64,000 bases of DNA from Alphaproteobacteria bacterium (lineage in GTDB: Bacteria > Pseudomonadota > Alphaproteobacteria > SP197): NCBI GenBank assembly GCA_965220805.1, contig OZ244844.1:3415757-3479756 (forward strand), in the 5' to 3' direction. This document shows, one piece after another, positions 28,833 to 64,000 of the stretch; position 1 is the stretch's first letter, and each line of letters starts with the position of its first letter. The notes beneath the pieces are model-generated. The model was not told where the DNA came from and ran no database searches. It worked only from the letters and a program-made list of their open reading frames with translations. A program made the translations under genes and the position numbers.

Positions 28833-33029
<4,197 letters not shown>

Positions 33030-33053: not shown

Positions 33054-36000
33054 TCAGCCCGCCTGTTCAAGCTCGACATTGAGGCCGAGCGCCTGCATTT
33101 CCTTGACCAGCACGTTGAAGCTCTCGGGAATGCCGGCCTCGAAGTACTGATCACCCTTGACGATGGACTCATAGATCCGCGTGCGGCCGGCGACATCGTC
33201 CGACTTGACGGTGAGGATCTCCTGGAGCGTGTAGGCCGCACCATAGGCCTGCAGGGCCCAGACCTCCATCTCGCCGAAACGCTGGCCACCGAACTGGGCC
33301 TTGCCACCGAGCGGCTGCTGCGTGACGAGGCTGTAGGCGCCGACCGAGCGGGCATGGATCTTGTCGTCGACAAGGTGATGGAGTTTCAGGATGTAGTGGT
33401 AGCCCACGGTGACCGGCCGGTCGAAGGGCTCCCCGGTCCGGCCATCGATGAGTATCTCCTGGCCACTGGCGGAGAGACCGGCAAGCTCGAGCATGTCGGT
33501 GATCTCCTTTTCGCCGGCACCGTCAAACACCGGAGTGGCGACCGGAATGCCGGACCTCAGCTCGTTGGCGGACTCCATGAGTTCGGTGTCCTTCATGCCT
33601 GAAAACCGACCGGTCTCCGGATCCTCTCCGTAGACCCCGGTGAGCAGGGTGCGCAGGTCGTCATGGGTTGACACCCTGTCACCGTCGAGAGGCATCTCGA
33701 TGGTCATGCTGTCGACCATCCGGCCGATCTTCCTGCCGATACCGGCGCTGGCCCAGCCGAGGTGTGTTTCGAGAATCTGCCCGACGTTCATGCGGCTCGG
33801 CACACCAAGAGGATTGAGCACGATGTCAACCGGCGTGCCGTCCTGGAGATAGGGCATATCCTCGATGGGAACGATGCGGGAAATGACACCCTTGTTGCCA
33901 TGGCGTCCGGCCATCTTGTCACCGGCCTGGAGCTTGCGCTTCACCGCGACGAAGACCTTGACCATCTTGAGCACGCCAGGCTGCAGTTCGTCGCTCGCCT
34001 CGAGCTTCTCGAGGCTGGCCCTGTGCAGCCGCTCAAGATCCGCCATCCGGTCGTCGTAGCGAGCCTTGAGCTCTTCGATGGCCTCCATGGTGGCACGATC
34101 GGCCACGACGATCTGCCATCTCTGGCCATGAGTGAGGGAATCGAGAAGATCCCGGTCGACCACGGCGCCCTTCGCAACACCCTTGGGGCCGCGCTTGACG
34201 GTGCCCCCGTCGAGCAGGTCAACGAGCCGCGCCTGAACCGTTCGCTCGATTATGGAGTGCTCGTCGGCCCGGTTCTGTTCGAGGCGGTCGACCTCGGCGC
34301 TGTGAATGGTCTCGGCGCGCTGGTCCGTGTCGTAGCTTGCACGCGAGAAGACCCGCACCTCGACCACGGTTCCCTGACCTCCTGGAGGCACGCGAAGCGA
34401 AGTATCACGCACATCCGAGGCCTTTTCGCCGAAGATGGCGCGCAACAGCTTCTCTTCCGGGGTTGTCGGACTCTCCCCTTTCGGGGTGATCTTGCCGACA
34501 AGAATGTCATCGGCCTCGACTTCGGCCCCGATGTAGACAATGCCCGCCTCGTCGAGGTGCCGCAACGCCTCGTCCCCGGCATTGGGGATGTCGCGCGTGA
34601 TCTCCTCTGGGCCGAGCTTGGTGTCACGGGCCACCACTTCGAACTCCTCGATGTGAATCGAGGTGAAGACATCATCCCTGACGATGCGTTCGGAAATGAG
34701 GATCGAATCCTCGAAGTTGTATCCGTTCCACGGCATGAAGGCACACAGCACGTTGCGCCCGAGCGCCAGTTCTCCGTGGTCGGTCGAGGGTCCGTCCCCG
34801 AGGATCTCGCCCTTTTCCACCCGCTGACCTGTCTTGACCAGCGGTCGCTGGAGGATGCACGTGCTCTGGTTGGACCTCTGGAACTTCAGCAGCGGATAGA
34901 TGTCGACATTGAGCGTGTTGAGCGCTTCCTCCTCGTTGACCCTGATGACGATCCGCTGTGAGTCGACCTGGTCGACCACGCCGCCTCGGCGGGCGACGAT
35001 GGTGGACACGGAATCCCGGGCCACCACTTCCTCCATACCGGTGCCGACGAGCGGCGCTTCGGCGCGGATCAGGGGCACGGCCTGACGCTGCATGTTGGAG
35101 CCCATCAGGGCGCGGTTGGCATCATCGTTCTCGAGGAAGGGAATGAGGGCAGCGGCGACCGACACCAGCTGCTTGGGCGACACGTCCATCATGTCGACAT
35201 AGGCCGATTCCGCCATGACGAATTCGCCGTTCCGGCGGCATGACACCAGCTCGTCGGCGAAACGGCCATCCTCGGTAAGCCTGGCATTGGCCTGGGCAAT
35301 CGTGTGCTGCCGTTCCTGCATCGCCGTCAGGTACTCGATCCTGTCGGTCACCCGGCGTTCACCGTCGACCAGTTCCACCTTGCGGTATGGACTCTCGATG
35401 AATCCGTGCTGGTTGATGCGGGCGAAGGTCGCAAGGGAGTTGATGAGACCGATGTTCGGCCCTTCCGGCGTCTCCACGGGGCAGATCCGACCATAGTGGG
35501 TCGGATGTACGTCGCGCACCTCGAAGCCGGCGCGCTCTCGGGTCAGCCCACCCGGCCCGAGCGCCGACAGGCGGCGCTTGTGTGTCAGTTCCGAGAGCGG
35601 ATTGGTCTGCTCCATGAACTGGGAAAGCTGGGACGCGCCGAAGAACTCGCGCACCGCCACCGCCGTGGTCTTGGCGTTGATGAGATCGTGCGGCACTTCC
35701 TTGTCGAGTTCGGCCTGGCTCATGCGCTCGCGCACCGCCCGTTCCATGCGCAAAAGGCTTGCCCGGTACTGGTTCTCGAGCAATTCACCGACGGAGCGCA
35801 CGCGACGGTTGCCGAGGTGATCGATGTCATCGATGTCACCTCGGCCATCGCGCAGTTCCACCAGTGTCTTCAGACAGGCCATGATGTCGCCGGGCGTCAG
35901 CACGCGGCCGGTTTCAACATGATCGGGACCAAGGCGTTCGTTCATCTTGACGCGCCCGACCGTCGACAGATCGTAGCGGTCGGCATCGAAGAAGAGGCCC

Positions 36001-37889
36001 TTGAACAGGGTCGCTGCGGCTTCCGGCGTGGTCGGATCGCCGGGACGCATGACCTTGTAGATCTCGATCTGCGCCTCCTCGCGGTTCGATGCCTTGTCGA
36101 TGCCGAGGGTCTTGCAGATGTGGGGGCCCACCTTGACGTGATCGATGTCGAGGGTTGTCACCTCGTCGTTCGCGTGACTGGCGAGGAGGTCAAGCAGTTC
36201 CCGGTCGATCTCGGCGCCGGCCTCGGCGAGAACCAGCCCGTTCGTTTCGTCAATGTGGTCTCCGGAAAGGAACCTGCCCAGCAGAAGCTCATCGCCCACG
36301 AACTGCTCCTTGAGCCCGGCGTTTGCCAGTTTGCGGAGCTGCAGCCTGGTGAGTTTGGTGCCGGCTGTCGCCATGACGGCGCCGTCGGCGGCATTGACGA
36401 GGTCACGTGTCAGCTTGGTGCCCAGCAGAGCCGAGGTTTCCGAGGCGTCGAACGGCACTTTCCAGCCCGGGCGAACGAGACGCTTCGCGGTCACCGTACC
36501 GCCTTCCTTGAACAGCGTGATGCTCTCGACATCGGAGCGCACCAGCTTGTTGAGCAGCTTGCGGTCGACATGGGCGCCAACAGCGGCGACCACGGTGTCA
36601 CCGGAGCCCTGCACGTCAACGGCCAGCGTCCGCCCCTCAAGCTCCTCCCGGCTTACTTCGACGCCCAGCGGCCGTCCGTCGGTACTGGCGAGGATCTCGT
36701 CACGCCATGCATCCGTCATCCTCGTCCCTGCAGGGGCGACAACATCGCCGGAGCGGACGTCAAGGAGGTCTTGATCAAGCGCGTCTCCGGTCGCGCCGGC
36801 GACATCGAAGGCGAAGAACCACTTCCTGTGTCCGCCCGAGCGCAGGGCCACGGTCGGCGAGTCACCGCCGAACATGGTGATCTCGCCGACTTCAGCGGAT
36901 CCCAGTGCAGAGAGTTCGCGACGGGTCAGCACAGTACCGGCATCGATGATGACCAGGCCTGATTCCGGATCGATGACATCCTCGGCAAGGCAGCGCCCCA
37001 CAAGAGCGTCGTCCCTGACATGGCTGGCAAGGTTCCTGGAGGACCTGCTCCTCTTCGGCAGCGTCGAGCCGGCTGCAGCCGCAACACGCCCCTTCGCCAG
37101 GTCGATGACATCGTGCCCAAGAACCCCGCCGGCCCGTTCCGCATCCGCGAGGGGCAGCGCCCACTCCTGGTGGACACGCACGAACGGCACCGTGTCGTAG
37201 AATGTCTCCAGAATGTCCTCGGCGGTGTAGCCCAGAGCAAAGAGCATGGTCGTCGCCGGCAGCTTGCGGCGGCGGTCGATGCGGACGTGGACAATGTCCT
37301 TGGCATCGAACTCGAACTCCAGCCAGGAGCCGCGGTAGGGGATGACGCGGGCGGCGAACAGGAACTTGCCCGAGGCGTGGGTCTTGCCCTTGTCGTGGTC
37401 GAAGAAGACACCCGGTGACCGGTGCATCTGCGAGACCACCACGCGCTCGGTGCCATTGACAATGAAGGTCCCCTTGTCCGTCATGAGAGGAATGTCACCC
37501 ATGTAGACATCCTGCTCCTTGACGTTGCGGACCTCCCTCTTGCCGATGTCGCGGTCGACATCATAAAGAACCAGACGCAGCTTCACCCGCAAGGGCGCAG
37601 CATAGGTCAGGTCCCGCGCCAGGCACTCCATCTCCGTGTGTTTTGGCGGCTCGATCTGGTAGCGCACGAACTCGAGATCGGCGCGATCGGAAACATCGCT
37701 GATCGGAAAGACCGAGCGGAACACGCCCTCGAGTCCCTCGTCGAGAATTTCGTCCGGCCCCGCATCGCGCTGCAGGAAATGGTCATAGGAGATGCGCTGC
37801 ACATCGATCAGGTTGGGCATGTCGATCACCGGCGGGATCCGCCCGAAGTTGCGCCGCATGGCGGAACGCCTGTTCATGTGCTTTTCCAT
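33054..37889 (-). CDS. rpoB: DNA-directed RNA polymerase beta subunit, unusually long (about 1610 aa) owing to an insertion of roughly 230 aa in the beta lobe (aa about 236-470)
   Basis: Conserved beta-subunit regions throughout; extra segment between TFYDTV and PGWKVPFDA. Confidence 0.9.
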
Positions 37890-41186: not shown

Positions 41187-41262
41187 TGGCAGGAGTGGCA
41201 GGACTCGAACCCGCAACCCCCGGTTTTGGAGACCGGTGCTCTACCAGTTGAGCTACACTCCT
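41187..41262 (-). tRNA. tRNA-Trp (CCA anticodon), 3' CCA encoded
   Basis: Manual fold: acceptor AGGAGTG/CACTCCT, anticodon loop CUCCAAA, T-loop TTCGAGT. Confidence 0.9.
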
Positions 41263-41277
41263 TGAAATGCCTGTTTT

Positions 41278-42468
<1,191 letters not shown>

Positions 42469-42550
42469 CCTTCTCGACCTCTCCTGGTCAATGACCCTCC
42501 CTCACGAGGGAGGTGTTCCTGGTTATCACAAACATGGTCCCTGGTCGGGG

Positions 42551-42621
42551 AGCGGGTGGCGGGAATCGAACCCGCGTAACCAGCTTGGAAGGCTGGGGCT
42601 CTGCCACTGAGCTACACCCGC
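42551..42621 (-). tRNA. tRNA-Gly (TCC anticodon), 3' CCA not encoded
   Basis: Manual fold: acceptor GCGGGTG/CACCCGC, anticodon loop CTTCCAA, discriminator U. Confidence 0.85.
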
Positions 42622-42659
42622 CTCGTCGAGGTCCGCAACCGCCCCTCCCGGACCATGGA

Positions 42660-42744
42660 TGGTGGAGGGAGGTGGATTCGAACCACCGTAGGCATAGCCA
42701 ACGGGTTTACAGCCCGTCCCTTTTAACCGCTCAGGCATCCCTCC
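42660..42744 (-). tRNA. tRNA-Tyr (GTA anticodon), long variable arm, CCA encoded
   Basis: Manual fold: acceptor GGAGGGA/TCCCTCC, anticodon loop CTGTAAA, T-loop TTCGAAT. Confidence 0.85.
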
Positions 42745-46795: not shown

Positions 46796-46871
46796 GCCGG
46801 GTTAGCTCAGTTGGTAGAGCAACCGCCTTGTAAGCGGTAGGTCGCGAGTTCGAGTCCCGCACCCGGCACCA
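46796..46871 (+). tRNA. tRNA-Thr (TGT anticodon), CCA encoded
   Basis: Manual fold: acceptor GCCGGGT/ACCCGGC, D-arm GCTCAGTTGGTAGAGC, anticodon loop CTTGTAA. Confidence 0.9.
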
Positions 46872-63545: not shown

Positions 63546-63752
63546 AAAGGGGGCGCGCACACGCCCCTCTTGCCCCCTCTGTCACCGAACCTGAGAGCAT
63601 CACCGGAACACCGGCTTTCCCCTTCGGTGAGAAGACGCACCAGCGCCTTCTTCTCTCCAGAGCAGCCATTCACCTGCGGTCCCTTTGCCTGAGAGATTTC
63701 GGGACAGATTGCACCTTCGGCGCCGGTCTCGGGACCGGTCTCTCCCGCAGGT
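63546..63752 (-). promoter_or_regulatory. tandem glycine riboswitch (two aptamers) with a terminator-like GC hairpin and U tract at its 3' end (63546-63566), upstream of gcvT
   Basis: Minus strand reads CGGGAGAGACCGG...GCGCCGAAGGTGCAA...CUCUCAGGCAAAGGGACCG then CUCUGGAGAG...CACCGAAGGGGAAAG...CUCUCAGG...GACAGAGGGGGCAAGAGG, matching the glycine aptamer consensus twice; followed by GGGGCGTGTGCGCGCCCCTTTG. Confidence 0.8.
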
Positions 63753-64000
63753 TTCAGCGGCTCCCAAGACTATTGAACCCGCCACCCGCCGTGTCAACCT
63801 CCAACCGGCAATCAGGTGGGACACGGTTCCAATGGACTTGCTGATGCTGTTGCGGGCTTTCCGACCATGGCGGATACCGTGTCGTACCCTTGATCGATCA
63901 GGGCGAGGAGCGCGAACACTGAAACCCGCGTTTGCGGCGCACGACGACAAGCTTGAGGTGGGTCCGGCGAACGGGCGAACCCGCTCGCGGCCCCTCTGGG

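Follow-up and report, generated by a model that had tools for sequence, protein, structure and literature searches.

Why should the beta subunit of RNA polymerase (RpoB) of an alphaproteobacterium be longer than that of its closest insert-free relatives by some 235 residues, and what are the additional residues made of? The question is raised by the rpoB gene in a stretch of 64,000 nucleotides (here called the window, with positions counted from its first letter) from contig OZ244844.1 of assembly GCA_965220805.1, an Alphaproteobacteria bacterium, where the stretch occupies positions 3,415,757 to 3,479,756 of the forward strand. The original prediction, made from the sequence alone, was that a lineage-specific insertion in the beta lobe had arisen by tandem duplication of the adjacent module. 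We find that the beta2 lobe of this RpoB has three tandem BEAN domains at the site known as beta-i4 or SI1. The third of these, unit C, is the ancestral canonical domain, and the first two, units A and B, are its paralogs, each about 115 amino acids (aa) long with the connector strands included. Taken as a whole, the explanation that we hold with considerable confidence is that three BEAN domains are present, that they arose by tandem duplication in place and that they provide extra surface on the lobe.

The canonical domain has been described in E. coli, where beta-i4 spans residues 225-343 of beta and forms a compact acidic domain of 22 x 50 Å, joined by two short connectors to the tip of the beta2 lobe (PMC2939025). 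The domain moves with the lobe as a rigid body and supplies most of the interface between the lobe and TraR (PMC6970531). When it is deleted, growth is reduced and TraR-mediated regulation impaired (PMC2939025, PMC6970531). According to one of these sources, beta-i4 is predicted to consist of one to six tandem BBM2 repeats across bacteria, with two in Proteobacteria (PMC2939025, citing Iyer et al. 2004 and Lane & Darst 2010). RpoB proteins have also been classed by their BEAN insertions. In this scheme, type 4 has a single BEAN domain at the beta-i4 site, while type 4*, reported for Armatimonadetes, has additional multidomain insertions; a term search of that paper turned up no BEAN domains repeated three times in tandem at a single site (PMC11515920).

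Three domains at the beta-i4 site

The open reading frame (ORF) of 4836 nt encodes 1611 aa, in agreement with the length of about 1610 aa first given for it, and is a full bacterial RpoB in which Rpb2 domains 1, 2, 3, 45, 6 and 7 were all found (Pfam, E 1e-21 to 3e-137). Its closest insert-free relatives have 1371 aa, and the whole excess lies in one block. The best solved relative is the RpoB of C. crescentus (7ye1_C, 1356 aa), in which residues 242-1355 align with query residues 475-1609, and the E. coli chain aligns from 256 to 1341 with query residues 500-1609. These alignments place about 235 extra residues just upstream of the beta-i4 segment. From the offset between query residue 500 and E. 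coli residue 256, unit C falls at about E. coli 230-346. In an alignment of 15 sequences, a single block of 233 aa follows position 241 of the 1371-aa sister sequence P0012, and no other large length difference relative to that sequence was found. Across the sequences that bear it, the block has 233-238 aa and is flanked by ...[10 protein letters not shown] and PGWKVPFDA. The excess had been mapped between the motifs TFYDTV (aa 229-234) and PGWKVPFDA (aa 474-482), and more narrowly to window positions 36480-37184, which correspond to aa 236-470; both the C. crescentus chain and P0012 bear this location out.

The block was originally described as a diverged repeat of the segment that follows it, plus extra sequence. 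The repeat is real. When the insert was compared with the canonical segment by BLASTP, two separate, collinear and nearly full-length matches were obtained, one for unit A (aa 243-338 against 476-578, 34.6% identity, E 1e-12) and one for unit B (aa 358-458 against 480-578, 30.4% identity, E 2.7e-9). Smith-Waterman scores stood well apart from those of 1000 shuffles, with z values of 17.2 for A and C, 11.1 for B and C and 10.5 for A and B. Similarly, HHalign matched both units to a profile of 121 canonical units (A: probability 99.2%, E 1.2e-19, 100 columns; B: 99.1%, E 1.7e-18, 102 columns) and to each other (98.6%, E 1.1e-15, 107 columns). Because A and B both match unit C from end to end, the supposed extra sequence is a second full copy of beta-i4 and nothing in the block is left unexplained. 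The duplication of an adjacent beta-lobe module is thus supported for the whole block of about 235 aa, with the correction that BBM2 modules, cited at first as a separate kind of insertion known from other taxa, are indeed known there and are also what was duplicated here: the module itself is a BBM2-pair beta-i4.

When 54 units were aligned jointly, all three kinds proved collinear over their full length, the opening Trp is invariant in every unit (W243, W357 and W476 in this protein) and the Gly and Asp positions of both BBM2 motifs are conserved. The boundaries of the units repeat the resident connectors, with a W...PF start and an I-T-x-F end, and the flanks of the block are seamless. Unit C is collinear with the beta-i4 of all insert-free relatives. 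The complete array therefore comprises three domains and six BBM2 motifs, about 355 aa in total, and the six half-units align with one another and with canonical beta-i4.

The identity of the extra domains was also approached with profiles of unit A alone and of unit B alone, built without any canonical unit and compared with solved RpoBs. The first found the beta-i4 of X. oryzae (RpoB 260-339, E 6.5e-4) and C. crescentus (243-350, E 2.3e-3), and the second that of C. crescentus (247-345, E 1.2e-4), X. oryzae (250-339) and P. aeruginosa (248-339). A phmmer search of the PDB with the single insert sequence gave matches located on beta-i4, at marginal E values of 0.03-0.5. For unit B, an AF2 model built from an alignment of 51 homologous units, canonical ones included, reached a predicted local distance difference test score (pLDDT) of 93.1 and a predicted template modelling (pTM) score of 0.78. 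The top 50 Foldseek matches of this model in the PDB were all RpoBs with beta-i4, among them the crystal structures of E. coli beta2-beta-i4, 3lti and 7egs (probability 1.0, template modelling (TM) scores 0.44-0.51). The E. coli lobe with its beta-i4 ranked ahead of the other known BEAN proteins that the model matched. Modelling, which had been suggested as a check on the insert, was thus informative for unit B, whose model resembles beta-i4; the model of the two-unit insert was too poor to use.

Both extra units exceed the HHalign probability of 70% by which BEAN domains are recognized (CATH 3.90.105.10; PMC11515920), and the block lies at the beta-i4 site, between the lobe flank that ends in TFYDTV and the canonical domain. 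The TGD/E motif of RpoB BEAN domains is found as well, although it is degenerate in unit C of this clade: the position reads E(S/T/A)G(L/E/V) in unit A, (S/P)(G/N)(D/N)(T/S), mostly SGD(T/S), in unit B and (T/S)(N/D/S)GL in unit C, as against TGE in other Alphaproteobacteria. By contrast, the array departs from the "Eco-like" proteobacterial beta-i4, defined as exactly two BBM2 in one domain of about 119 aa (PMC2939025), since it has three domains and six motifs. An SBHM insert was considered and rejected, the block having neither the fold nor the sequence of that family. An intein or mobile element was likewise rejected, as the block has no Hint or endonuclease domain in Pfam, no DNA repeats, a GC content like that of the gene and homology to beta-i4 over its full length.

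Compared with E. coli beta-i4 (PDB 3LTI, 7EGS), the array has the same beta2-lobe site, the same two-BBM2 BEAN domain and a similarly acidic surface, all units carrying a net charge between -2 and -13. Unit C is the ortholog of the E. coli domain; A and B are paralogs, predicted to fold in the same way. A single such domain (two BBM2) is present in E. coli and in every other proteobacterium described to date, whereas this RpoB has three (six BBM2). The units also differ in the helix that corresponds, by an approximate mapping, to the one bearing the conserved basic patch of the E. coli domain. In unit C this helix is recognizably basic (KLTRLQLRK); in A it varies, and in B it is mostly acidic. 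Since the basic helix is not conserved in A and B, these units are unlikely to duplicate that particular interaction.

Table 1. Features of the array, of its gene and of the adjacent rpoC, in window coordinates.
Feature	Position	Strand	RpoB residues	Basis or remark
Unit A, first extra beta-i4 BEAN domain, including connector strands	36825..37184	-	236-355	BLASTP, HHalign, unit-A-only profile
Unit B, second extra beta-i4 BEAN domain	36471..36824	-	356-473	
Unit C, canonical beta-i4/SI1	36120..36470	-	474-590	Ortholog of E. coli beta 225-343
BBM2 motif A1	37014..37133	-	about 253-292	Boundaries approximate; G-x-L-x-x-D-x-x-D-x-x-x-G-x-V-x-x-x-AG pattern aligned with first BBM2 of unit C
BBM2 motif A2	36870..37013	-	about 293-340	Boundaries approximate; [26 protein letters not shown]... 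lines up with second BBM2 of unit C
BBM2 motif B1	36654..36791	-	about 367-412	Boundaries approximate
BBM2 motif B2	36504..36653	-	about 413-462	Boundaries approximate
BBM2 motif C1	36300..36422	-	about 490-530	Boundaries approximate
BBM2 motif C2	36150..36299	-	about 531-580	Boundaries approximate
N-terminal part of beta2 lobe hosting the array	37185..37442	-	150-235	Conserved flank ending TFYDTV
C-terminal part of beta2 lobe after the array	35790..36119	-	591-700	Pfam Rpb2_2 match 601-698; alignment
rpoB, RNA polymerase beta subunit	33054..37889	-		ORF, translation, six Pfam Rpb2 domains, PDB RpoB matches at E = 0
rpoC	28833..33029	-		ORF of 1398 aa, directly downstream of rpoB

Distribution and age of the triplication

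The distribution of the block was drawn from a whole-protein search, a cluster look-up, a genome scan and a representative profile search. In the first of these, made against clusters at 90% identity, four RpoBs of comparable length were found: P0001 (96% identity, 1611 aa), P0002 (83%, 1608 aa), P0003 (80%, 1606 aa) and P0004 (79%, 1606 aa). The best matches after them have at most 75% identity and 1371-1410 aa, and they are insert-free. Besides the query, the block is limited to these four in the 15-sequence alignment, so that close relatives share both length and repeat while the nearest outgroup lacks the block, as would be expected from the lineage-specific insertion first proposed. The clusters with the insert have 37, 10, 1 and 2 members, and the genes come from different ENA samples and assemblers, some of them on contigs of 0.3-4.4 Mb. 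Additionally, the block is present at 84% identity in OZ220705.1 (L007), a GTDB representative labelled "MAG: Alphaproteobacteria bacterium" (MAG, metagenome-assembled genome) with a 4.7-Mb chromosome, and a divergent rpoB on ena:ERZ25070743:contig_65 (L010) has a block of about 233 aa at the matching site, with roughly 700 nt between the conserved flanks. On that contig every gene from secE to rpoC is split by frameshifts, which suggests an uncorrected long-read assembly.

In all, at least 7 independent assemblies, which belong to one alphaproteobacterial clade, have the block, and the sister group lacks it. None of the carriers found is a named isolate, and the neighbouring insert-free sequences are labelled as Rhodospirillaceae or Rhodospirillales MAGs. 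Neither the whole-protein search nor the cluster look-up revealed a clade member that had lost unit A or unit B. The partner subunit gave no sign of a matching length change, as RpoC has 1391-1398 aa where RpoB bears the insert and 1394 aa in the single insert-free genome that was looked at.

Some of the other searches say little about absence. A homology search with the insert alone gave no match, yet it also missed the 96%-identical P0001, and a search with a five-sequence alignment of aa 225-600 returned one unrelated fragment and missed P0001 again; these negatives are consequently not evidence of absence. The failure reflects a blind spot of the word index, which makes negatives unreliable for segments as rich in Ala, Gly, Val and Leu as this one. 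A scan of metagenome contigs gave only distant beta-i4 matches among the matches listed.

The age of the event can be judged from the sequences of the units. In positions 36000-37300, no DNA-level tandem or direct repeats were found beyond chance 17-25-mers, and since no such repeat remains, the duplication is not recent. In a neighbour-joining tree, the units of six genomes sort by their place in the array, into one group of A copies, one of B and one of C (bootstrap 99, 99 and 98%, respectively), which means that the triplication predates the split of these lineages.

Part of this is familiar. The building block, the site and the range of copy numbers are already known, and the case belongs to an ordinary kind of RNA polymerase evolution. 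The size of the insertion had been thought worthy of attention, and it is unusual for Proteobacteria; it is not unprecedented, as one to six tandem BBM2 were already predicted for beta-i4 across bacteria (PMC2939025). The multi-BBM2 beta-i4 domains of other lineages, with up to six repeats, share with this array the site, the building block and a copy number within that range, but they were reported outside Proteobacteria, while here we have a separate, much younger event in one alphaproteobacterial clade with insert-free sisters (PMC2939025). What is new is an independent triplication within an alphaproteobacterial clade, recent enough for the ancestral state to survive in sister taxa. A further parallel is the Si3 insert of the beta' subunit (beta'i6), which is also a lineage-specific RNA polymerase insert made of one repeated small domain. 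Si3 consists of tandem SBHM domains and is strongly expanded in cyanobacteria (PMC10895346, PMC2939025). It differs from the present array in subunit, site and fold (SBHM instead of BBM2/BEAN); it is part of the trigger loop and is mobile during catalysis, in contrast to the peripheral beta-i4.

Constraint, origin and possible role

Units A and B have been kept in frame and at a nearly constant length. The purifying selection on them is weaker than that on the neighbouring lobe by a factor of 2-9. By the Nei-Gojobori method with bootstrap intervals, the ratio of nonsynonymous to synonymous substitution rates (dN/dS) is 0.15-0.64 for the insert (A and B together; all bootstrap upper bounds at most 0.87), 0.05-0.25 for unit C and 0.02-0.18 for the N-terminal core (aa 1-235). 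In comparisons of the more distant lineages, the insert has 44-60% aa identity as against 86-90% in the core. Unit C is the best conserved of the three: in it, the five insert-bearing genes of full length share 69-95% aa identity. In the same five sequences, the length of the insert varies by at most 5 residues and 71 of its 238 columns are invariant.

A serious rival explanation, which we consider possible if rather unlikely, is that A and B are almost selectively neutral: a duplication at a permissive surface site would have been tolerated and then kept, since the clean removal of a folded domain is rare, with no constraint other than that of remaining folded and soluble. The elevated dN/dS, which rises to 0.64 (upper bound 0.87) in one pair, and the low identity of the insert are what such accretion would leave. 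In its favour one may also cite the GC content at third codon positions, 0.74-0.76 in the insert and thus below the 0.81-0.84 of the rest of the gene, and the fact that E. coli beta-i4 was first named "dispensable region I" (PMC2939025). On the other hand, the near-constant length, the invariant columns and the block of about equal size in the divergent L010 are hard to reconcile with it, dN/dS is significantly below 1 in every pair and neither unit has been lost in any clade member found. Furthermore, E. coli is affected in growth and in regulation when its single domain is deleted (PMC2939025, PMC6970531).

If A and B do contribute to the enzyme, their contribution would be an enlarged acidic docking surface on the beta lobe, a function that we only infer. 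As the two ends of beta-i4, an insertional domain, come together at the base, the three domains would cluster as a bouquet of acidic cylinders instead of forming an end-to-end rod. Such a bouquet at the tip of the lobe would stand at one wall of the downstream-DNA channel and beside the rim of the secondary channel. Unit C would retain the canonical beta-i4 role, to which, in E. coli, contact with factors of the TraR/DksA type and rigid-body movement with the lobe belong. Units A and B would add peripheral acidic surface, either docking lineage-specific partners or sterically tuning access to the face of the downstream and secondary channels, and they would take no part in catalysis. A more specific proposal is that A and B together act as a clade-specific docking platform that recruits a regulator other Proteobacteria lack, or that they alter the engagement of DksA/TraR-type factors, sigma region 1.1 or UvrD-type helicases. 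We regard this as speculative and improbable in its specific form. Were it true, the clade would regulate transcription initiation or repair coupling in a different manner, and any binding by the extra domains would provide a means of studying what beta-i4 does, which is still poorly understood.

As to origin, the segment coding for the resident beta-i4 would have been duplicated in tandem, and in frame, in the ancestor shared by one uncultured clade of Alphaproteobacteria. Alternatively, the block might have been acquired by recombination with a foreign rpoB that already carried several BBM2 pairs in its beta-i4, to which we give little credence. It is true that A and B are only about 30% identical to C, that their grouping with the clade's own C has a bootstrap of 61% in the neighbour-joining tree of units, and that multi-BBM2 beta-i4 domains are predicted in other phyla (PMC2939025). 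Nevertheless, with mean identities of 32 and 30%, A and B resemble unit C of their own clade slightly more than the beta-i4 of other Alphaproteobacteria (28 and 26%), and no closer source emerged from a profile search of 1.84 billion representatives. The overall GC content of the insert is like that of the rest of rpoB, and the seamless flanks and repeated resident connectors also speak against a foreign donor. These observations weakly but consistently suggest duplication in place. An artefact of assembly or sequencing, for instance through the collapse or expansion of a repeat, is refuted: nothing specific favours it apart from the likely misassembly of an unrelated long RpoB (P0008, see below), units only about 30% identical and sharing no DNA repeat leave an assembler nothing to mis-join, and the architecture recurs in at least 7 independent assemblies, including megabase contigs and a complete chromosome, with insert sequences 44-88% divergent.

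Several points weigh against the explanation by three BEAN domains duplicated in place and adding surface to the lobe. An origin in situ is favoured over a foreign donor by a bootstrap of only 61%, and the fast evolution of A and B, together with the non-conserved basic helix, fits a weak or absent specific function. The 238-aa insert with both units, modelled by AF2 from an alignment of five sequences, reached a pLDDT of only 60, so that the shape proposed above for the array is a topological inference only. The alignment behind the unit B model included canonical units, and the model therefore leans to their fold; its TM-scores of 0.44-0.51 are modest.

With these reservations, the triplicated beta-i4 is a clean and datable case of insert growth, in which a resident surface domain was amplified, the ancestral copy was conserved and the new copies drifted, while insert-free sisters remain available for comparison. 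An indel of 233-238 aa in a universal gene is also a robust molecular marker for this uncultured clade, as had been anticipated. It calls for caution when rpoB lengths or alignments are used in phylogeny or binning, since about 240 aa are paralogous to the neighbouring segment and can misalign.

Other unusual RpoBs and neighbouring genes

The same searches returned several further proteins of unusual architecture. P0008, an RpoB of 1738 aa with 67% identity, was considered as a second example of a large insert and rejected: a 241-aa block (aa 890-1130) repeats core RpoB motifs out of order, which makes a misassembly likely. In aa 333-406 the same protein has a separate Glu/Ala-rich insertion of about 70 aa at the end of beta-i4. 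The RpoB of Indioceanicola profundi (P0103, 1396 aa) has a 25-aa insertion at about aa 220-244, just upstream of beta-i4, and was the only sequence with it; insertions of this type may explain the RpoBs of 1396-1398 aa in Niveispirillum and Azospirillum. In P0252 (1491 aa), a region of about 330 aa resembling Ser/Thr kinases is in frame with a complete RpoB N-terminus, and the C-terminus is frameshifted; this protein is either a real fusion or an artefact of gene calling or assembly.

Tandem BBM2 arrays were found by the profile search mainly in beta' subunits of other lineages. For instance, P0237, P0248 and P0251, which are beta' fragments or proteins, have 4-8 tandem BBM2-like stretches, and P0201, a gamma-like RpoB of 1718 aa, has BEAN-like stretches at three different beta sites. 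From P0201 and the beta' arrays we conclude that amplification of the BBM2/BEAN module is common elsewhere in RNA polymerase. P0249 (1340 aa) consists of some 21 repeats of 63 aa, almost identical to one another, and matches the BBM2 profile in 21 stretches (E 2.7e-19).

The rpoB-rpoC order is present in the window, and the whole rplJ-rplL-rpoB-rpoC order was seen at the loci of relatives, where the order secE-nusG-rplKAJL was also found; presumably these last genes lie upstream of rpoBC in this window too. Also upstream of rpoBC are tRNA-Trp, tRNA-Gly and tRNA-Tyr (41187-42744, minus strand), near a 396-aa ORF (41278-42468) that we take to be tuf, and tRNA-Thr (46796-46871, plus strand). Farther along, at positions 63569-63757 of the minus strand, there are two adjacent glycine riboswitch aptamers (Rfam RF00504, 76 and 46 bits) in their usual tandem arrangement.

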